64,000 nt of DNA, taken from assembly GCA_963662965.1 (NCBI GenBank), contig OY759970.1, forward strand, positions 3,904,524 to 3,968,523, read 5' to 3'. Both the position numbers and the translations under genes were made by a program. This stretch comes from Vicinamibacterales bacterium. GTDB taxonomy: Bacteria; Acidobacteriota; Vicinamibacteria; Vicinamibacterales; UBA8438. How positions within the stretch are numbered: position 1 is the stretch's first letter; every line of letters starts with the position of its first letter. This document shows positions 18,059-26,360 of the stretch, in pieces. Under the pieces are notes generated by a model. It saw nothing but the letters and a program-made list of their open reading frames with translations. It did not search any database and had not been told where the DNA came from.

Positions 18059-19597
18059 GTGCGCGTCCATATTGTCAACCCCAGTCATTTTTCCTTCGGG
18101 ACAGGTTTCATTACCCCGCGCTGGATGTATGTGCTTGCCGCGGCTACACCCTCCAAGTGGGGTGATCCCATCTTGAGCGACGAGTCACTTGAGCCGTTCG
18201 ATACAGACCAGCTTGAGAAGAGGGACGTCATTGGTATCGGGCTCCACACGGGTAATGCTCTGGTCGGTTATGAGCTAGGGCGGCGTGCCCGGGCGCGCGG
18301 TGCATCGGTGGTTTACGGTGGCAGCCACCCTACCTTATTTCCAGAAGAAGCGTTTGAGCGGGGCGGTGCGCATGCCGTGGTGAAGGGCGACGGCGATGTC
18401 GCCTGGGGCGAAGCGATCGAAGACTGCGTCAACGGAGTGCCTAAACGGATCTACAACGGTGGGCGAGTTGACGCCGGGACATTCCGAAAAGCGCGTTGGG
18501 ATCTGATTGACCGCAAGAAATATGCTTGGGCGTCGGTGCAGACTGTGCGTGGGTGTCCCAAGCATTGCTCGTTTTGCTCGGTGTGGCGTACCGATGGCCA
18601 AGAGCCTCGGCAGCGCGGAGTCGACGTGGTGCTCGAAGAGATCGTCGAACTACGGCGAATGGGCTTCCGGTGCATCGCCTTGGCTGACGATAATTTCTAT
18701 CCGGTCACGCTTGACGACCTCAAGATGGCCAGTCGTCGTAAGGACAAGACCAGGTACAACGAACTCAAGGCGCTTCGCGACGAACGGTTTGAGCTAATGG
18801 CTCTAATGGCGCAGCTGCCGAACGATTTGAATTTCTTCACGCAGATCACTATGGAGTCCGCCGAGGATCCGGAGTTTCTGGATGCGATGAGAGCAGCTCG
18901 TATCAGAGGTGCTCTCGTCGGTATTGAGGCGGTCACGCCGGAAGGGTTGAAGGACGTCTACAAGGACTTCAACCTTGCGGGTGAGGAGCTCGTTGAGCGT
19001 CTTCAGACGTTCCGGAAACACGGTGTCTACATTCTCGGCTCGTTCATCTTCGGTCTTCCAAGTGATCGTCCCGACACCTTCTACGCGACAGCTGAGTTGG
19101 CCAAGCGGGCCGACATCGCCTTCGCGCAATTCGTGACACTCACGCCGTTCCCGGGAACACTGGACTTCGAAAAATGGGAGCGCGAGCAGGGTGACGATAT
19201 GTCGACGGTTGACGGTATCCCGGTGTCGCGTCACTGGCTAATACCTCAGGCGAAGCGGCCCAAATTGCTGACCCCGCACCCGGTGATGTCGGGTGAGGAG
19301 ATCCGACAGGGAACCCAGAATGTCTGGAACGACTTCTATAGCTTGAAGGCGTCTTGGAAACGGTCCGACTTCCTGAAGGCATTCAGGAACCGTGTCGCGT
19401 TCGTGATATGTTCGAAGGTGATGCTTCAGGCGTTCGGTAACACGGGTCTGTCGACCGACAGTGCACGTGCGTCCCGCGCTACCAAACTTGGGGGGATTGG
19501 TTTCTCTCTTCTGAGGAAAATATTCGCTGCCGCACCGATGCCAGATCTTGAGGTGCCGAGGCCAGTGGAGATGTCGGACGCCTCGGTTCAAATTTAG
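18059..19597 (+). CDS. B12-binding-domain radical SAM enzyme
   Basis: 512 aa with an N-terminal cobalamin-binding-like Rossmann region (VIGIGLHTGNA...VVYGGSHPT) and the radical SAM cluster motif RGCPKHCSFCS. A good RBS (AAGGAGAG) lies upstream of the GTG start. The G+C content is visibly lower than in the flanking DNA. Confidence 0.85.
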   Translation: MRVHIVNPSHFSFGTGFITPRWMYVLAAATPSKWGDPILSDESLEPFDTDQLEKRDVIGIGLHTGNALVGYELGRRARARGASVVYGGSHPTLFPEEAFERGGAHAVVKGDGDVAWGEAIEDCVNGVPKRIYNGGRVDAGTFRKARWDLIDRKKYAWASVQTVRGCPKHCSFCSVWRTDGQEPRQRGVDVVLEEIVELRRMGFRCIALADDNFYPVTLDDLKMASRRKDKTRYNELKALRDERFELMALMAQLPNDLNFFTQITMESAEDPEFLDAMRAARIRGALVGIEAVTPEGLKDVYKDFNLAGEELVERLQTFRKHGVYILGSFIFGLPSDRPDTFYATAELAKRADIAFAQFVTLTPFPGTLDFEKWEREQGDDMSTVDGIPVSRHWLIPQAKRPKLLTPHPVMSGEEIRQGTQNVWNDFYSLKASWKRSDFLKAFRNRVAFVICSKVMLQAFGNTGLSTDSARASRATKLGGIGFSLLRKIFAAAPMPDLEVPRPVEMSDASVQI

Positions 19598-20574
19598 CTG
19601 CGCACACGGAAATCAGCGACCTGGATCTCGTCTCCGAAATCCGCGTAGTCGCCGTCGGCTCGTGCCCGTCGAAACGCTCCCCAGTTGATCGTGCGGTAGC
19701 GCGGTGCGTCGCCGTCAGGCATTGGCAGCGGTGCGTAGTCGGTGTCGTAGCCGGGATTGAAGAAGAACGGAATGCTGTAGCGCGGTCGGGTAGTGACCGG
19801 TCGTACGCGGTGTAGCGCGGCCGTGAACCGATCATTCGACCAGACCTGCATCATGTCACCGATGTTGACGACCACGGTGCCCGCAATCGGCGACACGTCC
19901 TGCCACCCGTCAGAGCCCTGCACCTGCAGTCCGCCGACATCGTCCTGGAGGAGGAGCGTCAACGCGCCGGCGTCGGCGTGGTGATGCAGCGCCTGGTCGC
20001 CGAGCGCCGCCGCCTCGGCCGTCGCGTCTGAGTCAAGCGGATCCTCCAGCGGGTAGTAGTTCAGCCGGACGAAACTGGTATGCGCGGGGGAGAAGTGCCG
20101 CGTCAGCGTCTCGGTCTCGCCGACAAGCGCCGCGGTGAGGAGCGCCAGGATGTCAAACGCAAGTCGCTCACAGGCCCGGAAGTACTCCTGCATCGCGGGG
20201 CGGAGCGCCGGTCGCGACACCGGCCACTGGTTTACGCCATCGACCGCCGCGACGCCGTCGCGACCGAAGTCGAAGACCTCCTTGAGGTCACGTCGGTTCT
20301 TGGTGAGCTCCCGGTCGTAATACCCACGCGGATTCGACTTCGTCCGCATCAGGGCCAGCTTCTCGGCGCGCGGGAGGGCGAAGAGCGCGTGCGTCTCCTG
20401 CCAGACCCGATCGACCAGGGTCTGCGTGATTCCGTGGGTCGTGACGTAGAAAAATCCCCAGTCGCACGCGGCCGCGCGCACGGCCGACACGAGCGTGGTC
20501 GGGGGCGCCGCGCGCCGCGCGCCGCTTCGCGTGAAACCGCTCAGGTCGATGGTCGGGATGCCCTCGGGCGTCAT
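19594..20574 (-). CDS. 2-oxoglutarate/Fe(II)-dependent oxygenase (isopenicillin N synthase-like)
   Basis: 326 aa with the N-terminal IPTIDLSGF. The facial triad and 2OG-binding region read HHHADAGALTLLLQD...GGLQV...VVNIGDMMQVWSNDRFTAALHRV. Confidence 0.85.
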   Translation of the reverse strand: MTPEGIPTIDLSGFTRSGARRAAPPTTLVSAVRAAACDWGFFYVTTHGITQTLVDRVWQETHALFALPRAEKLALMRTKSNPRGYYDRELTKNRRDLKEVFDFGRDGVAAVDGVNQWPVSRPALRPAMQEYFRACERLAFDILALLTAALVGETETLTRHFSPAHTSFVRLNYYPLEDPLDSDATAEAAALGDQALHHHADAGALTLLLQDDVGGLQVQGSDGWQDVSPIAGTVVVNIGDMMQVWSNDRFTAALHRVRPVTTRPRYSIPFFFNPGYDTDYAPLPMPDGDAPRYRTINWGAFRRARADGDYADFGDEIQVADFRVRS

Positions 20575-20655
20575 CTATCGACGGAGGCTGCGCGTCCGAC
20601 CCCCCCCGTCGCTAGCCGGGGCCCGATGCCCGTCGCCCGTGGCGGCGGGAGGGTC
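20575..20655 (+). repeat. degenerate copy of the intergenic structured repeat
   Basis: CTATCGACGGAGGCTGCGCGTCCGACCCCCCCCGTCGCTAGCCGGGGCCCGATGCCCGTCGCCC aligns with the consensus TAGACGGGGCTGACTGCCCCGAACCCCGTCGCGGTCACTCCGGGGCCCCATGCCCCGCTCC. Confidence 0.4.
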
Positions 20656-20666
20656 GCCACGAGTTC

Positions 20667-21341
20667 CTAGTCCCGGCCAAGGGTGAGTTCGCTCGTGGTC
20701 GCGTCGATCGTCACCGCGTGCCGCGACCGCTCCGCTCCGGCATGAACGACCGCGGTATAGCTCCCGGGCACGACATGGTCGAAGGTGAAGTGCCCCTCGC
20801 GGTCGGCGACCGTCGCATACGGGGACGAGGCGATCACGACGCTGGCGCCCATTTGCGGGTGGATGTCGCACGAGACACGATACGTGCCGGCGGTGTCAAA
20901 GCGATGCTCGTAGGTTCCGCCGATCGGCGTCGAGATGTTGAACGCCGTCTCCTTCGTCTTGATGTTATAGACGCGGACGTTGTGGAGCACATCCTCGCCG
21001 TTGTGGAAGTGCACGGGCTGCCCGACGTTCGCGAGCAATACGGGCGGCAGGAACTCCTGCCCGATCTGATCCATCTGCACCGCCGCGTTCGGGGGCTCGA
21101 CCGTCGTCGGCGACTGCGGCTCCAAGACGATAACGGTGAGTGAGCCATCCCGTGACGTCGGCGCCGTGCCGGTGATTTGCCGACCGTTGCCGGCGTCGGC
21201 CGTGGCGGCAGGTGCGGCCGGGACCGCGGCTTCTTCGGCGTCGCTCCCGCAGCCGATCGCACCGAGCCCGCACGCGAGAGCGAAACCCACAGTAATCGCG
21301 ACGTACGGCTTGCGGTGGCGGGGGGGGGCAAGGTACGTCAT
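20667..21341 (-). CDS. cupredoxin-like (type-1 copper) lipoprotein with C-terminal CarboxypepD_reg-like domain
   Basis: 224 aa with a lipobox-like GLGAIGCGS and the type-1 Cu ligand pattern HFHNGEDVLHN...SCDIHPQM (C-x2-H-x2-M). The C-terminus DREGHFTFDHVVPGSYTAVV is beta-sandwich-like. Confidence 0.6.
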   Translation of the reverse strand: MTYLAPPRHRKPYVAITVGFALACGLGAIGCGSDAEEAAVPAAPAATADAGNGRQITGTAPTSRDGSLTVIVLEPQSPTTVEPPNAAVQMDQIGQEFLPPVLLANVGQPVHFHNGEDVLHNVRVYNIKTKETAFNISTPIGGTYEHRFDTAGTYRVSCDIHPQMGASVVIASSPYATVADREGHFTFDHVVPGSYTAVVHAGAERSRHAVTIDATTSELTLGRD

Positions 21342-21432
21342 CTCGATTTGCGGTGCTCGCCGCTCATTATAGAGGGACCGCGCGGTTGATCCCCTTTCTC
21401 GTTGGCGTTACAGTAGCCAGGTGAGATTTATT

Positions 21433-21448
21433 CTGATTTTGAAATCAG
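21433..21448. promoter_or_regulatory. candidate operator: perfect AT-rich palindrome CTGATTTTGAAATCAG
   Basis: A 7-2-7 perfect inverted repeat lies in the divergent promoter region, about 30 nt upstream of the ATG at 21480. It is conspicuous against the GC-rich background. No known regulator consensus was recognised. Confidence 0.3.
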
Positions 21449-21479
21449 CAGGTATTCATCTCGTCTTGGAGGTGTTCTG

Positions 21480-22745
21480 ATGAAGAAAACCATACTTGCG
21501 TTGGTCGTGATTGCGGCCACGGCTGTGGTGATGCAGCCTGGCAGCGCTGCGGCGCAATCGAGCGACGTGACGTTCCACAAGGACGTCGAGCCGATTCTGC
21601 AGCGGTCGTGTCAGGTGTGCCATCGGCCCGACAACATGGCGCCGATGTCGCTGATGAGCTATCAGGAGGCTCGTCCATGGGCGCGGTCGATCAAGAATAA
21701 AGTGGTTGCGCGCGAGATGCCGCCGTGGCATATCGATCCCAACGTTGGTGTCCAGGACTTCAAGCAAGACCGCTCGCTGAGCAACGCCGAGATCGAGTTG
21801 ATCGCGACCTGGGTCGATGCGGGCGCCCCGCGCGGCAATCCGGCTGATGCCCCGCCGCCGGCTGTGCTCCCTGACTTCGGCGCGTGGGAGGTCGAGCCTG
21901 ACCTGATCGTCACCTCGCCGCCACACACCGTCCCCGCCGAGGCGGGTGACTGGTGGGGTGATTACATCGTCGAGTCTGGCGTCACCGAGGACCGCTACAT
22001 ACAGGCGATCCAGACGAAGGCCGGTGACCTGCGCGTGGTGCACCACGCGCTGACCTATGCGGTCACCGACCCCGAGGCGCCGGCGGATGACAGCTCGAAC
22101 GACTTCTTCCTCAACGAGTACGCGGTCGGCAAGAACGCCGACAAGTACCCCGAAGGCACCGGAAAAATGTTGGAGGCGAACTCTCGAATCCGTTTTAGCT
22201 TTCACTACCACTCGGTCGGTGAGGAAGTGGTCGACCGAACCGAGGTTGGCATGGTGCTCTATCCGGAGGGCGAGGAGCCCGACAAGGTGCTCTACTCGCG
22301 GCAACTCGCCCAGGCCGGTGAGCTCGACATTCCGGCCGGCCAGATCACGCGGCACGACGGCTATGCCACCATGTATCTGCCGGGCCGTTTGACCGGCTTT
22401 CAGCCGCACATGCACTTCCTCGGCAAGCGGCAGTGTCTCGAGCTCATCTATCCCGACTCGTCGACCGAGATGGTCAGCTGCGCCAACTTCGACTTCAACT
22501 GGCACATCGTCTACAACTACGACGACGACGCTCAGCCGATCTATCCGGCCGGCACCAAGCTTCACGTCATCAGCTACCACGACAACACCGAGGCGCATCG
22601 TGGCAATAAAGACGCGCTCAACTGGACCGGTGGCGGCAGCCGCACGATCGACGAGATGGCGTTCGGCTGGATTAGCTGGTACGACTTGAGCGAGGAAGAA
22701 TACGCGGAGGAGTTGGAGACTCGCGCGGCCGACAACAACAACTAG
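21480..22745 (+). CDS. secreted heme c / copper type II monooxygenase-like fusion protein
   Basis: 421 aa with a signal peptide and the N-terminal c-type heme motif FHKDVEPILQRSCQVCH. His clusters VVHHALTY, FSFHYH and FQPHMHFLG resemble the CuH/CuM sites of PHM/DBH-type monooxygenases. Confidence 0.65.
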   Translation: MKKTILALVVIAATAVVMQPGSAAAQSSDVTFHKDVEPILQRSCQVCHRPDNMAPMSLMSYQEARPWARSIKNKVVAREMPPWHIDPNVGVQDFKQDRSLSNAEIELIATWVDAGAPRGNPADAPPPAVLPDFGAWEVEPDLIVTSPPHTVPAEAGDWWGDYIVESGVTEDRYIQAIQTKAGDLRVVHHALTYAVTDPEAPADDSSNDFFLNEYAVGKNADKYPEGTGKMLEANSRIRFSFHYHSVGEEVVDRTEVGMVLYPEGEEPDKVLYSRQLAQAGELDIPAGQITRHDGYATMYLPGRLTGFQPHMHFLGKRQCLELIYPDSSTEMVSCANFDFNWHIVYNYDDDAQPIYPAGTKLHVISYHDNTEAHRGNKDALNWTGGGSRTIDEMAFGWISWYDLSEEEYAEELETRAADNNN

Positions 22746-22775
22746 GTCCGTCGCAATTGTAGGTTCGCAGACTGG

Positions 22776-22809
22776 GGCACTCTGCGGAGGCTTTCCTCTG
22801 TAGAGTGCC
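22776..22809 (+). terminator. stem-loop downstream of the 21480..22745 gene (possible terminator or attenuator)
   Basis: GGCACTCT(22776-22783)/AGAGTGCC(22802-22809) encloses an inner GGAGG/CCTC helix. It is followed by TTGTTCGT, which is only a weak U-tract, and the next gene is co-directional. Confidence 0.3.
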
Positions 22810-22855
22810 TTGTTCGTATAGGGCAAGAAACAGGAATGTATCGTGAGAGGTCAGC

Positions 22856-23881
22856 ATGAAGGTTGATTCCCGATGGGTCGTGGTTGCTGCGACTGTGGTC
22901 GTGATCGGTGGCGCGTCACGCGCCGCCCAGGCGCAAGTCAACCCGCGCGACGTGCCGATTGTGACCCAGCCGCAGCAGCGCTTTGACGCCGGACAAGACG
23001 TACAGCCGATCTTCGAAGGGTGGACGCGGAACGACGATGGCAGCTATCTGTTCCACTTTGGGTACATGAATCGGAACTATCGTGAACAGCCGAGCGTTCC
23101 GATTGGGCCCGATAATCACTTCACCCCCGGAGACGAGGACCGTGGTCAGCCCGCCTATTTCTTTCCTCGCACGCAACGGTACCAATTCACGACACGCATG
23201 CCGGCGGACACCGGAACCAGCCCGGAGGACGGTATCGTCTGGCACCTGAGGGTGAACGGCAGCGAGCAGTTCGCCTACGGTTGGCTGCAGCCAGAGTGGG
23301 AGATAGACGTGAACACGATCACGTCGAACGGCCGCACCGGTTTTGGGCGCTCGAAGGACGAGATCTTTGCGAACCGTGCGCCGTCGGTCACCGCGTCGGT
23401 GGACCAGACGACGGCGCGTGTCGGTGAACCGGTCACGCTGACGGCGTCGCTCACCGACGACGACCTTCCTTCGGAGCTCGCGCCGCGGAAGCCGCGCACA
23501 CGGCTGCCGGCCTTGGTCGCGCCGGACGGCGCCCCGAAGTCGCCAGATAACATCCGTTCTTATCGTAAGCCACGGGCGCCACGCAACGGGCTGTCGCTGT
23601 TGTGGATCGTCTATCGGGGCCCCGCGGACGCCACCTTTGAGCCTGGCGGCTACCAGCGCGCGGTGTCCGAGGAAGAAGGAGAAGAGCCGCTCCCGGGGCG
23701 AGCTGGCGCCACGAGCGGTCCCGAAAGCAACGAGTCGACATCTCTCGAAGGCGACGGCTGGACGGCAGCGAAGTTCGAGGCGACGGTGACATTCGCCGAG
23801 CCGGGGACGTATACGCTGCGGGCGTGGGCGAGCGACGCGATGCTGCTGGTGCCGGCCGACGTGACGATCACCGTGCAGTAG
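22856..23881 (+). CDS. secreted hypothetical protein
   Basis: 341 aa with a signal peptide ending AAQAQ. No motif was recognised. The C-terminal about 90 aa look Ig/PKD-like (FEATVTFAEPGTYTLRAWASD). Confidence 0.55.
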   Translation: MKVDSRWVVVAATVVVIGGASRAAQAQVNPRDVPIVTQPQQRFDAGQDVQPIFEGWTRNDDGSYLFHFGYMNRNYREQPSVPIGPDNHFTPGDEDRGQPAYFFPRTQRYQFTTRMPADTGTSPEDGIVWHLRVNGSEQFAYGWLQPEWEIDVNTITSNGRTGFGRSKDEIFANRAPSVTASVDQTTARVGEPVTLTASLTDDDLPSELAPRKPRTRLPALVAPDGAPKSPDNIRSYRKPRAPRNGLSLLWIVYRGPADATFEPGGYQRAVSEEEGEEPLPGRAGATSGPESNESTSLEGDGWTAAKFEATVTFAEPGTYTLRAWASDAMLLVPADVTITVQ

Positions 23882-23948
23882 CAGACCGACCGTTCGAGAC
23901 GCACCCCGAGGTCATACGAGCGGAAGGACCGATCCGGGACCGGGCGCG

Positions 23949-24419
23949 TTATCGCTTCGGGCGGCGGTGGCCGGCGTCCCCGCGCTCTGATCCGCTGGTC
24001 CTGGCGAGCTGGAAGACCGCCACCAGCAGGCACGCGGCGCCGAGTGGGACGAGCGCGATGCCGATGCCCGGGTCACCGCTGTAGAACGACACGCCGCCGA
24101 GAAAGAACCCGCCCGGCAACAACACGCTCGCGCCGATGAGAGCGCCGGACATGAGTGGGCACCGCGACCGCGCGATGTCGGGGAAGGTGCGCAGCACGAG
24201 CGCGGTGACGACGTGGACGACGCCGAGCAGTGCGCCGTGGGCGTGCGCCAGCGTCCACATCAGTCGTCGCGTCGCGTTCGTCACGTCGAGGTAGAAGCCG
24301 ACCTTGAAGCCGTGTAGCGTCTCGAGCGCGAGGCCGAGGATCAGGAACACGAACAGCGACCACCAGCCGAACCTGAGGTGGCGGCCAACATAGTTAGGCG
24401 AGGCGGTTGGCGCCGGCAC
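23949..24419 (-). CDS. four-TM membrane protein with His cluster (unknown family)
   Basis: 156 aa with four predicted hydrophobic helices and His residues in ETLHGF and TLAHAHGALLGVVH. It lies 3 nt downstream of the octaheme cytochrome gene. Confidence 0.55.
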   Translation of the reverse strand: MPAPTASPNYVGRHLRFGWWSLFVFLILGLALETLHGFKVGFYLDVTNATRRLMWTLAHAHGALLGVVHVVTALVLRTFPDIARSRCPLMSGALIGASVLLPGGFFLGGVSFYSGDPGIGIALVPLGAACLLVAVFQLARTSGSERGDAGHRRPKR

Positions 24420-24422
24420 ACG

Positions 24423-26360
24423 CTACTCGCGGAGGAAGAGCGGACGCGTGTCGCGCTCGTCGAAGAGTCGCCGCAGCGCGGCGGTATCCAAGATGCCGTC
24501 GGCGTCGAAGAAGAGTTGGCGATCGCGACGGACCCGCGACGCTGTGCTGTTGCGCCAGGTGGTGAGCGCGTCGATCGCCGCGGCCCGGCGGCCGTCTCCG
24601 TCGCCGACGAAGTCGTAGTCGAGGCCTTCGTATCCGGGAATCGTTCGCAACGCGCCGGCGGCGATGTACCGGACCGTGTCGTACGGGTCGCCGAGCAGCT
24701 GACCGAGATAGGGCACCATCCAGCTCGTGCCCGACGCCGACTGCGCCGGCGTCCAGCCGTAGCTCCACGCGGTGATGGCGCGGAGCCCCGCATCGCCCTT
24801 CAAGAGCCAGAGAATCGAGCCGGCGACCGCCTGCTCATCTGGGTCGAGCGTGGGGGCTGACGTGTCATACCAGTCGGTCAGTCGCTCCGCGGTCCACGCG
24901 AGCGTCTGGTCCAGATGGCAGAGGTTGCAGGCGTTCGGGCGACCGACCTCCACGCTCTCCTGCACCGACGGGCTTGTGATCGTGTGGCTGCGAACCGCAC
25001 TCATTAGGCCGTACGAGGTGTACGGCATGTGGCAGTTGTAACAGCGACTGCCGAACGAATCCCCGTCGTGATGCGTGTGCGCGGTCAGGTCGGATGCGAT
25101 CCCATCGTGGCACTGAGCGCACGCCAGGTTGCCGTCCATACCGGCCGATACTTGATGCGTATCGGCCCACACGTCGACGGGGCGCGGGTCGTCAGGCGTC
25201 AGGTGCAGAGTGTGGCACGAGAAGCACGTGAGTGTCCGCTCGGGCGTGTCGGCGTTCTGAAAGCAGGGTGAATCGAGGAGGCCGTTATACTCCCGTCCCG
25301 ACACGCGGACGATCCCGTCTGCCCAGAACGACCCGCGAACGAACTCGGGGTCGGTGGCGAGCAGCGCCTGCATCTCCGGGGTGTCACCGTTCGTCGTGGG
25401 CTGCGCCACGAAGCGTGTGTCCCTCAGCGCATCGCCCGGCCGATAGGGGAGGCCGTCGGCATTGGCGGCGCGCTCGTCGTCGGTGTCGTAGAACTCCCAG
25501 ATGCTGTGGCATTGACCGCAGACCTGCGACGACCGCGCGGGGTCGAGCCGTATCGGATCCACGATCGTTGGATCCGGCCCACCCGAGAGGTGCAGCGCGT
25601 AGCGGCGCCAGGGACTCCTGTTGGCCTCGACGTGCTCCTCGCCCGGACCGTGGCACGACTCGCACGCAATCCCGAACTCGACGGCGGTGGTGTCGACGGC
25701 CTGGTCGGCAATCGGCTCTGACCCGTAGGGCGTGTCGAACTGCGTCTTACCCAGCGTGGTGTGGCACACGATACAGATCGCGTTCCAGTGTCCATTTGTC
25801 ATGGCCAGGCGTTGCCCAGGCGGATGGAGCACGACGGCGCTGCGTGGCGCCCACCGCCCTTCTTCGAGCAAAAAGACCGCGGGGAGGACGTTGAGCGCTC
25901 GGTCATGCTCGGTGGCGTACCAATAGATGTTCTGATGATGCGAGCCGGTGATCATCACCACCTGGCGGGTGATCCGCGGGCGCTCGCTGGGCGGTCCGTC
26001 CCACCCCGGGTCGTCGAACTCGGCCCAGAACTCGTCGCCCCGTCGCTCGAGCCGCATCGGCGCGCCGTGAACCGCATCGACGACTACACCGTCGAACTCG
26101 GCCCGCACCGTGTCCGGTGCCGCCACTTGCGTCATCGTGCGATGGAACGAGTCGTACCACGTCTCGTACGGTGACGGATGACACGCCCGGCAGGTCCGTG
26201 ACGAGACATAGCCGTCGCCCTCGACCGCTATGGGCCGGTGTGTGATCTCGTGCTCCGGGACGTCGGCGCCAAGCGAGGCTGCGACCACGGCCCCCAGTAC
26301 CAGGGCGCTGGCGAGGAGTGTGAGGACGGGAAGGGGAACGTGCCGCGGCGGCTGAGTCAT
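24423..26360 (-). CDS. octaheme c-type cytochrome with C-terminal HEAT-like helical repeats
   Basis: Eight CxxCH motifs are present (CRACH, CIVCH, CESCH, CGQCH, CFSCH, CAQCH, CYNCH, CNLCH). The signal/anchor is MTQPPRHVPLPVLTLLASALVLGAVVA. I placed the start at Met11 of the 24423..26390 ORF because the first 10 codons lie in a repeat copy. Confidence 0.85.
   Translation of the reverse strand: MTQPPRHVPLPVLTLLASALVLGAVVAASLGADVPEHEITHRPIAVEGDGYVSSRTCRACHPSPYETWYDSFHRTMTQVAAPDTVRAEFDGVVVDAVHGAPMRLERRGDEFWAEFDDPGWDGPPSERPRITRQVVMITGSHHQNIYWYATEHDRALNVLPAVFLLEEGRWAPRSAVVLHPPGQRLAMTNGHWNAICIVCHTTLGKTQFDTPYGSEPIADQAVDTTAVEFGIACESCHGPGEEHVEANRSPWRRYALHLSGGPDPTIVDPIRLDPARSSQVCGQCHSIWEFYDTDDERAANADGLPYRPGDALRDTRFVAQPTTNGDTPEMQALLATDPEFVRGSFWADGIVRVSGREYNGLLDSPCFQNADTPERTLTCFSCHTLHLTPDDPRPVDVWADTHQVSAGMDGNLACAQCHDGIASDLTAHTHHDGDSFGSRCYNCHMPYTSYGLMSAVRSHTITSPSVQESVEVGRPNACNLCHLDQTLAWTAERLTDWYDTSAPTLDPDEQAVAGSILWLLKGDAGLRAITAWSYGWTPAQSASGTSWMVPYLGQLLGDPYDTVRYIAAGALRTIPGYEGLDYDFVGDGDGRRAAAIDALTTWRNSTASRVRRDRQLFFDADGILDTAALRRLFDERDTRPLFLRE

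Follow-up and report, generated by a model that had tools for sequence, protein, structure and literature searches.

A secreted heme c–PHM/DBH-like fusion protein and its conserved partner gene in a Vicinamibacterales genome

Animals use the copper core common to peptidylglycine α-hydroxylating monooxygenase (PHM) and dopamine β-hydroxylase (DBH) for the production of noradrenaline and amidated hormones, and enzymes of this type are textbook examples of eukaryotic, ascorbate-driven monooxygenases. The 64,000-nucleotide (nt) stretch of a Vicinamibacterales genome analysed here (contig OY759970.1; hereafter the window) raises the question of whether such a core also operates in bacteria, how it would be supplied with electrons and which of the genes around it belong with it. 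The gene concerned encodes a secreted protein, referred to below as the enzyme, for which an earlier note made from the DNA letters had described a signal peptide, an N-terminal heme c motif and the His pattern of copper monooxygenases, all of which, together with the coordinates of the gene, are confirmed. Our analysis suggests that the enzyme is probably a periplasmic two-copper monooxygenase of the PHM/DBH type with a built-in reductant, working with the product of the following gene, a secreted protein of 341 amino acids (aa) referred to below as the partner.

Read from its N-terminus, the enzyme comprises a Sec-type signal peptide (MKKTILALVVIAATAVVMQPGSAAAQ, aa 1–26), a mono-heme cytochrome c of class I type, a linker, domains corresponding to the CuH and CuM domains of PHM and a C-terminal helix, and along this order are found the motifs FHKDVEPILQRSCQVCH, VVHHALTY, FSFHYH, FQPHMHFLG and TIDEMAF. 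An AlphaFold2 (AF2) model of the enzyme, built from 26 relatives, has a mean predicted local distance difference test (pLDDT) score of 78. When the model was compared with the Protein Data Bank (PDB) using Foldseek, ranks 1–31 were occupied exclusively by PHM/DBH structures (E values from 9e-13 to 8e-10, probability 1.00), with target template-modelling (TM) scores of about 0.6 over some 300 columns, which corresponds to the whole PHM catalytic core, and the next match was five to six orders of magnitude weaker. A profile of 104 sequences that includes distant representatives was aligned by hhalign with the rat PHM catalytic core (PHMcc; the reference sequence is 100% identical to PDB 4e4z_A and covers PAM residues 45–356), giving a probability of 95.5% and an E value of 5e-9 over 276 columns. 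The homology to Cu2 monooxygenases that the earlier note had proposed to check by profile methods, and with it the fusion of a heme c domain to a PHM/DBH-type copper core, is thus borne out by the fold search, the profile alignment and six invariant ligands.

These ligands can be placed residue by residue. In the hhalign alignment H188 and H189 of the enzyme fall on H107 and H108 of rat PHM and H242 on H172, while H310 and H312 fall on H242 and H244 and M393 on M314. Only 13 residues are 100% invariant among 104 relatives, and ten of these are accounted for by the heme motif (C44, C47 and H48), M80 and the copper ligands; P55, P81 and W111 make up the rest. M80, which lies within an MPPW motif, is the probable sixth ligand of the heme. 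The heme c domain is helical in the AF2 model (residues 32–43, 61–77 and 102–113), and in a profile search of the PDB the stretch around the heme motif shows similarity to hydrazine synthase alpha and to a monoheme cytochrome c. The residues with which PHM binds the carboxylate of its substrate (R240, N316 and Y318) are Q308, F395 and W397 in the enzyme, at positions that vary across the family; with this triad replaced the substrate is therefore not expected to be peptidylglycine, and the enzyme would be PHM-like in mechanism and not in substrate. A probable disulfide, C319–C334, is conserved only within the close subfamily.

The family to which the enzyme belongs is large, with more than 5,262 matches in a word-indexed search and 16,700 representatives, at a clustering level of 50% identity, in an exhaustive profile search. 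The few names given at source for these relatives read ‘hypothetical protein’ or ‘cytochrome c family protein’. The features of the locus are collected in Table 1.

Table 1. Features of the locus, with positions in the window unless another locus is named.
Feature	Position	Strand	Remarks
Amicyanin-like cupredoxin gene, probable lipoprotein, 224 aa	20667-21341	-	Local neighbour of the enzyme gene
Inverted repeat CTGATTTTGAAATCAG (CTGATTT-TG-AAATCAG), AT-rich	21433-21448	.	Within the 138-nt divergent spacer; 32-47 nt before the start codon of the enzyme
Enzyme gene, secreted heme c/PHM-like fusion, 421 aa	21480-22745	+
Heme c domain, aa ~29-115	21564-21824	+	C44-x-x-C47-H48; three helices in the model
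PHM N-domain-like beta-sandwich, aa ~142-262	21903-22265	+	CuH-type ligands H188, H189, H242
PHM C-domain-like beta-sandwich, aa ~269-402	22284-22685	+	CuM-type ligands H310, H312, M393
Intercistronic hairpin	22775-22810	+	16-bp uninterrupted stem, 4-nt loop, then TTGTTCGTAT; centroid fold
Partner gene, secreted, two beta-sandwich domains, 341 aa	22856-23881	+	Signal peptide
Four-transmembrane (4-TM) membrane protein gene, 156 aa	23949-24419	-
Octaheme c-type cytochrome gene, 655 aa	24423-26390	-	Convergent with the cassette
Secreted 4-Cys protein gene, 214 aa	26474-27118	-	Weak DUF1554 similarity
PAL-like NHL gene	L010:4626-5849
PAL-like NHL gene	L039:3091-5354
PAL-like NHL gene	L049:7429-8568
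PAL-like NHL gene	L066:9-704
PAL-like NHL gene	L073:77-1003
PAL-like NHL gene	source genome, near 1,887,000

An antisense open reading frame of 456 aa (21456–22826, - strand) overlaps and outsizes the enzyme gene, an artefact typical of high-GC DNA that can mislead gene callers. The gene on the + strand is taken to be the real one because of its G+C fraction at third codon positions (0.83) and its homology.

The question of which neighbours belong with the enzyme was addressed by comparing 79 related loci. Most of these come from Vicinamibacterales or from other members of the Acidobacteriota, and a few from bins of Acidimicrobiia and Chloroflexi; one of them, L030, belongs to a Luteitalea metagenome-assembled genome, so that this cultured genus may have the cassette. 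What is conserved among them is a two-gene cassette of enzyme and partner, and not the association with a cupredoxin and a palindrome. By tblastn the partner is present in 72 of the 79 loci. In about 70 its gene is the immediate neighbour of the enzyme gene, lying downstream in the same orientation in 64 and upstream in about six. The earlier note had placed the 341-aa protein correctly as the product of the next gene and had suggested that its co-occurrence with the enzyme be examined; that it is the one tightly conserved partner was there given too little weight. Pairwise distances between enzymes and between partners are correlated (r = 0.89, a value reached in none of 999 permutations), with a mean distance of 0.58 for the partner against 0.47 for the enzyme, so that the partner diverges faster. 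Adjacent genes share their history in any case, and the correlation therefore shows co-inheritance without shuffling and is not proof of interaction.

In an even sample of 201 Acidobacteriota genomes the enzyme occurs in 44, often in eight or more copies, and the partner in 20, of which 19 also have the enzyme. The source genome, a single contig of 5.22 Mb that is 98% complete, holds at least 12 full-length enzyme copies and 11–12 partner copies, which form ten or eleven adjacent pairs, and its sister genomes have similar or larger numbers of cassettes. Signal peptides are present in all 12 of the full-length enzyme copies examined in the source genome. Partner genes without an adjacent enzyme also occur, with three in a row in one sister genome (G073, C1:676198–681285) and one orphan copy in the source genome (4267018–4267824). 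A distant paralogue of the enzyme in the source genome (176230–177447, - strand) contains an in-frame TGA, which may mark a pseudogene, reflect an error of sequencing or be a recoded codon.

The AF2 model of the partner, a confident one (60 sequences translated from the loci; pLDDT 86.8), consists of two beta-sandwich Ig-like domains, the second of which is PKD/Big-like, with disordered inserts at aa ~205–245 and ~270–300. Residues W56, D61, Y70, N72, N74, N87, Q98, F102 and W129 are among those invariant in domain 1, and the invariant positions are aromatic or polar in character. The alignment of the locus sequences contains no conserved His, Cys or Met. Searches of Pfam and NCBIfam gave no family match for the partner, the hits being a weak one to Pfam PKD and further weak Ig-like ones, and no match to DOMON, carbohydrate-binding module or cupredoxin domains was found. 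The lack of metal ligands and the faster divergence are consistent with a role of the partner as a subunit for substrate recognition or docking.

The enzyme and partner can be combined in a working model in which the N-terminal heme c, ligated by His and Met, would accept single electrons from periplasmic carriers and pass them to CuH and from there to CuM, which would activate O2 for the hydroxylation of a C–H bond of the bound substrate. In this way the heme c domain would stand in for the route through ascorbate and cytochrome b561 used in animals. Candidate carriers are encoded at the locus itself, namely an octaheme cytochrome with a 4-TM membrane protein and possibly the amicyanin-like cupredoxin. 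The octaheme cytochrome has eight CxxCH motifs, matches Pfam Cytochrom_C552 and Cytochrome_C7 and shows similarity to a decaheme family of NCBIfam. Homologues with 56–75% identity lie near the cassette in ten loci, comprising eight orthologous ones (L001, L002, L004–L007, L009 and L046) and two rearranged ones of no more than about 55% identity, L022 and L024. Viewed from the cassette, the octaheme cytochrome, 4-TM and 214-aa genes follow it in eight of ten orthologous loci, L003 being excepted and the only one that lacks the cytochrome. The 4-TM gene starts next to where the octaheme cytochrome gene ends, the two are conserved together in nine loci, and the 4-TM protein, which has no family match in Pfam or NCBIfam, carries His36, His59, His61 and His69 in or near its membrane segments. 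We regard the octaheme cytochrome as a candidate electron feeder and the 4-TM protein as a candidate link to the membrane or to quinol.

The presence of about eleven diverged cassettes in one genome suggests in turn that the enzymes are related but act on different substrates. A possible indication of what some of them do comes from NHL beta-propellers resembling PAL, the lyase domain of PAM: their genes are immediate neighbours of the cassette, in the same orientation, in L010, L039 (two copies), L048/L049, L066 and L073. A profile of eight of these neighbours matches the PAL domain of PAM (3fvz) with an E value of 8.5e-39 in one stretch that spans the whole propeller, and PAL is the best PDB match of their N-terminal half. 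PAL is a six-bladed propeller with R533, Y654 and R706 as catalytic residues and His residues as zinc ligands. In the alignment IHR corresponds to FHR533 and SDGYxNxR to SDGY654CNSR, with R533 and Y654 conserved. The correspondence of H690 and R706 is a motif match by eye only (PH...DRGN against PH690...DR706EN), the C-terminal half of the L049 protein lying outside the PAL alignment, and H585 (HGIxVD against HGLSID) and H786 are placed tentatively, from motif position only. Immediate adjacency of an NHL gene would be expected about once by chance in the 79 loci and is seen in five roughly independent cases, so the association of NHL genes with the cassette is suggestive but not proven.

In the most far-reaching reading the cassettes might be a bacterial counterpart of animal PAM, a large and diversified set of periplasmic, cytochrome-powered copper hydroxylases driven by the respiratory chain and equipped with specificity subunits and, in some cases, a PAL-like lyase, a proposal that we put forward tentatively and consider doubtful as it stands. 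Were it correct, each cassette would have its own peptide, amine or polymer substrate, hydroxylated at a carbon adjacent to a heteroatom, and in some loci the PAL-like zinc lyase would cleave the product in an oxidative dealkylation or amidation. Such a system would represent an unrecognized route by which Acidobacteriota scavenge or modify organic matter, and a prokaryotic root of the pairing of PHM with PAL.

Periplasmic oxidative enzymes are unusually numerous in the source genome and include pyrroloquinoline quinone (PQQ) dehydrogenases and NHL proteins in addition to the 12 or more heme–PHM-like copies. A PQQ dehydrogenase was considered as a linked neighbour of the cassette, but its occurrence in 12 of the 79 loci is about the chance rate given some 52 matches in the genome, and no link is claimed.

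Several results weigh against the interpretation of the enzyme as a cytochrome-driven copper monooxygenase that acts with the partner. Neither Pfam Cu2_monooxygen (PF01082) nor Cu2_monoox_C (PF03712) matches the enzyme of the window, even at E values up to 10, NCBIfam likewise yields no match, and sequence searches of the PDB were negative for the single enzyme and for its relative P0189, while a profile of enzyme relatives matched only through the stretch around the heme motif. With the Pfam and PDB sequence searches empty for the copper core, the homology therefore rests on profiles and on the predicted fold, and an hhalign run with a shallow alignment of 26 sequences gave a probability of only 11%, albeit in the right register. 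The link to the Pfam Cu2 monooxygenase families is transitive only, through P0189, a distant relative (E 1.7e-78 to the family profile) that passes PF03712 with 25 bits against a cutoff of 23 and reaches E 6e-4 on PF01082, where its 20.5 bits stay below the cutoff of 30. Through its heme domain the enzyme matches Pfam Cytochrome_CBB3 only weakly (17 bits where the cutoff is 27; E 0.0075) and stays below every Pfam cytochrome threshold, relatives P0134 and P0147 reaching 34–37 bits, and the confidence of the AF2 model is low around the CxxCH motif. As regards the partner, Foldseek returned for its model only generic tandem Ig-like domains (TM ~0.2) from which no function could be recognized, and 25 of the 44 enzyme-bearing genomes, whose enzyme relatives are more distant, have no detectable partner, which is therefore not essential to the chemistry of the fold. 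Finally, tblastn finds in the source genome about 31 matches of the PAL-like NHL propeller alongside those of the PQQ-dependent dehydrogenase propeller, so that some of the neighbourhood associations may be due to chance.

A different function for the same protein must also be weighed. In the distant relatives P0134, P0214 and P0265 the cytochrome c domain and PHM-like core are preceded by AhpC/TSA-redoxin or thioredoxin-like domains (some distant relatives have C-terminal TPR, GAF or EF-hand additions), and the redoxin fusions would be equally compatible with a role linked to peroxide or thiols. The enzyme might use its heme c and two coppers as an oxidase or reductase of the periplasm, either removing O2, peroxide or superoxide or serving as an electron sink, with the partner in a structural role. 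That the substrate-binding residues of PHM are not kept, and that no conserved pathway genes surround the cassette, would agree with such a function. However, about eleven diverged copies, each with a faster-evolving partner, fit diversification of substrates better than a single detoxification task, the His2Met site of CuM is specialized for C–H hydroxylation in PHM, DBH and TBH, and the PAL-like lyase neighbours of some loci fit a hydroxylation product. We consider this function unlikely.

The source of electrons had been sought by the earlier note in the fused heme and in the divergently encoded blue-copper lipoprotein, with a palindrome between the two genes as a plausible operator. The cupredoxin itself is genuine, and what had been recognized from the motif SCDIHPQM is an amicyanin-like domain (aa ~90–170) with a complete set of type 1 ligands (H120, C158, H161 and M164; C-x2-H-x2-M). 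Its score on Pfam Copper-bind is 21.3 bits against a cutoff of 21.2, and on the NCBIfam amicyanin model it reaches E 4.4e-5 and 23.8 bits, below the equivalog cutoff of 110; the PDB sequences that it matches best are those of amicyanins and of the blue copper domain protein 5fc9 (E 3e-5 to 1e-4), and in these alignments the ligands coincide. A CarboxypepD_reg/transthyretin-like beta-sandwich forms the C-terminus of the protein (E 1.4e-5). A run of nine G residues on the + strand (C9 in the coding sense; 21320–21328) lies within codons 5–8 of this gene.

A dedicated donor of this kind, expressed with the enzyme under a regulator bound to the palindrome, would account for the divergent arrangement across an AT-rich spacer, for the complete amicyanin-type site and for the retention of the cupredoxin in the two closest loci. 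Those two (L001 and L046, 85–86% identical) are nevertheless the only ones of the 79 in which it adjoins the enzyme; it is missing from the other orthologous loci (L002–L007 and L009, 74–77% identity), most of which keep the octaheme block, and the other cassettes of the source genome have no cupredoxin neighbour. The palindrome fares no better. Its sequence and position had been correctly reported, but it is not perfect, since two perfect 7-bp arms flank a non-symmetric TG (7+2+7) and the reverse complement differs at the two central bases. Inverted repeats of equal length arise in 74 of 2000 shuffles of the spacer (3.7%), which places it only marginally above chance. In L001 and L046 only the ribosome-binding site and the start region of the upstream sequence align, without the inverted repeat. 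None of the 79 loci has this repeat, the 5.2-Mb genome has a single copy of it, and it is not found upstream of the other enzyme paralogues of the genome, whose upstream regions share no motif. Not conserved, single in the genome and near chance level, the palindrome is rejected as an operator, and a dedicated cupredoxin–regulator system appears quite improbable. The cupredoxin is a plausible donor in its own lineage, outside the conserved system.

That the partner is instead the substrate, with the enzyme hydroxylating a residue of its cognate 341-aa protein, would be in keeping with the strict gene adjacency and one-to-one joint divergence, with invariant surface-type residues and absent cofactor ligands, and with the near confinement of the partner family to enzyme-bearing genomes, but is very unlikely in view of the tandem partner-only copies and the unpaired copy of the source genome described above, and since nothing like a conserved modification site was noticed at the C-terminus or in the loops, though without a dedicated test.

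We therefore continue to favour a heme-reduced copper monooxygenase assisted by the partner, and the region between the two genes may bear on how much of each is made. The stem–loop reported earlier at 22776–22809 is real, with its stem at 22775–22810. It lies in the 110-nt spacer between the two genes, and the spacer sequence as folded, of 121 nt, has a minimum free energy of -41.8 kcal/mol (z = -2.05). Among the 64 cassettes in which the enzyme gene comes first, 41 have genes that overlap or lie no more than about 40 nt apart and 23 have spacers of 76–210 nt; all 23 of these long spacers hold a stem of 8–27 uninterrupted pairs, and the hairpin of the window belongs to this class. It was not called by a simple terminator scan because it lacks a clean T-run. 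From its structure and position the hairpin is probably a partial terminator, or an element of mRNA stability or processing, which sets the ratio of the two products. A scan for sigma-70 promoters over 20500–24500 gave no match.

The wider surroundings are mixed, with genes for LpxD, RecQ, a BamB-like protein, ABC transporter components and a hydrolase, and offer no hint of a pathway. Just upstream of the cupredoxin gene a B12-binding radical S-adenosylmethionine (SAM) gene (512 aa, 18059–19597, + strand) converges with, and overlaps by 4 nt, a gene for a 2-oxoglutarate–Fe(II) oxygenase (326 aa, 19594–20574, - strand). The radical SAM gene is found again close to cassettes in L046 and, in two copies, in L055; the oxygenase is found again in none of the related loci.

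The comparison with known systems places the enzyme closest to PHM. According to a 2020 review of metalloproteomes (PMC7435645), PHM and DBM are cuproproteins found only in eukaryotes. Full-text literature searches returned no description of bacterial heme–PHM fusions, so that, within the reach of these searches, the statement of the earlier note that the role of such fusions is not established holds good. With PHM, the core of PAM (1phm, 1sdw, 3mll and 4e4z) and the top Foldseek match, the enzyme shares the catalytic core of two beta-sandwiches, the motifs VHH, HY, H-x-H-x-LGK and (S/T)xDEM, and a secreted or lumenal location. The spacing of the ligands is similar, being HH-x52-H-x67-HxH-x80-M in the enzyme and HH-x63-H-x69-HxH-x69-M in PHM. 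On the other hand the two are only about 14% identical, with the enzyme below the Pfam thresholds; the reductant would be an N-terminal covalent heme c in place of soluble ascorbate; and the enzyme has four Cys in total where PHM has five disulfides. It is moreover bacterial and has a dedicated partner gene, while PAL is not fused to it and a PAL-like gene is adjacent only in some paralogous loci.

DBH, TBH and MOXD1 have the same core (4zel_A and 4zel_B are at Foldseek ranks 10 and 15, E ~1e-11), and DBH likewise has an extra N-terminal domain before it, which is a DOMON beta-sandwich and not a helical heme c. The C-terminal dimerization domain of DBH, its use of ascorbate and its phenylethylamine substrates set it further apart from the enzyme.

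For the amicyanin-like neighbour the relevant comparison is with amicyanin (1aac, 3c75 and 1id2), which donates electrons to a c-type cytochrome in Paracoccus. Both have the cupredoxin signature of a C-x2-H-x2-M loop with an upstream His. The 224-aa protein differs in being probably lipid-anchored and in having a long linker and an additional CarboxypepD_reg-like domain, and no methylamine dehydrogenase genes are found near it.

A heme domain that delivers single electrons to an extracellular copper oxygenase is known from the cytochrome domain of cellobiose dehydrogenase (CDH), which reduces lytic polysaccharide monooxygenase (LPMO). The resemblance is a functional analogy only, without homology. 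Both families are rich in paralogues in degraders, and a polysaccharide substrate for the present enzyme would be pure speculation. LPMO has a mono-copper histidine-brace site, and the heme of CDH is of the b type, in a domain of DOMON-like fold carried by a separate protein. In the enzyme described here, by contrast, a two-copper core supposed to be eukaryotic is joined covalently to a heme c domain, and this in a very large bacterial family. Such a protein could serve as a bacterial model for the long-debated electron transfer between the two coppers of PHM and DBH, with a spectroscopic handle built in, and it points to unexplored oxidative chemistry in abundant and mostly uncultured soil and marine bacteria, whose PAL-like neighbours bear on the origin of the pairing of PHM with PAL that is seen in animal PAM.

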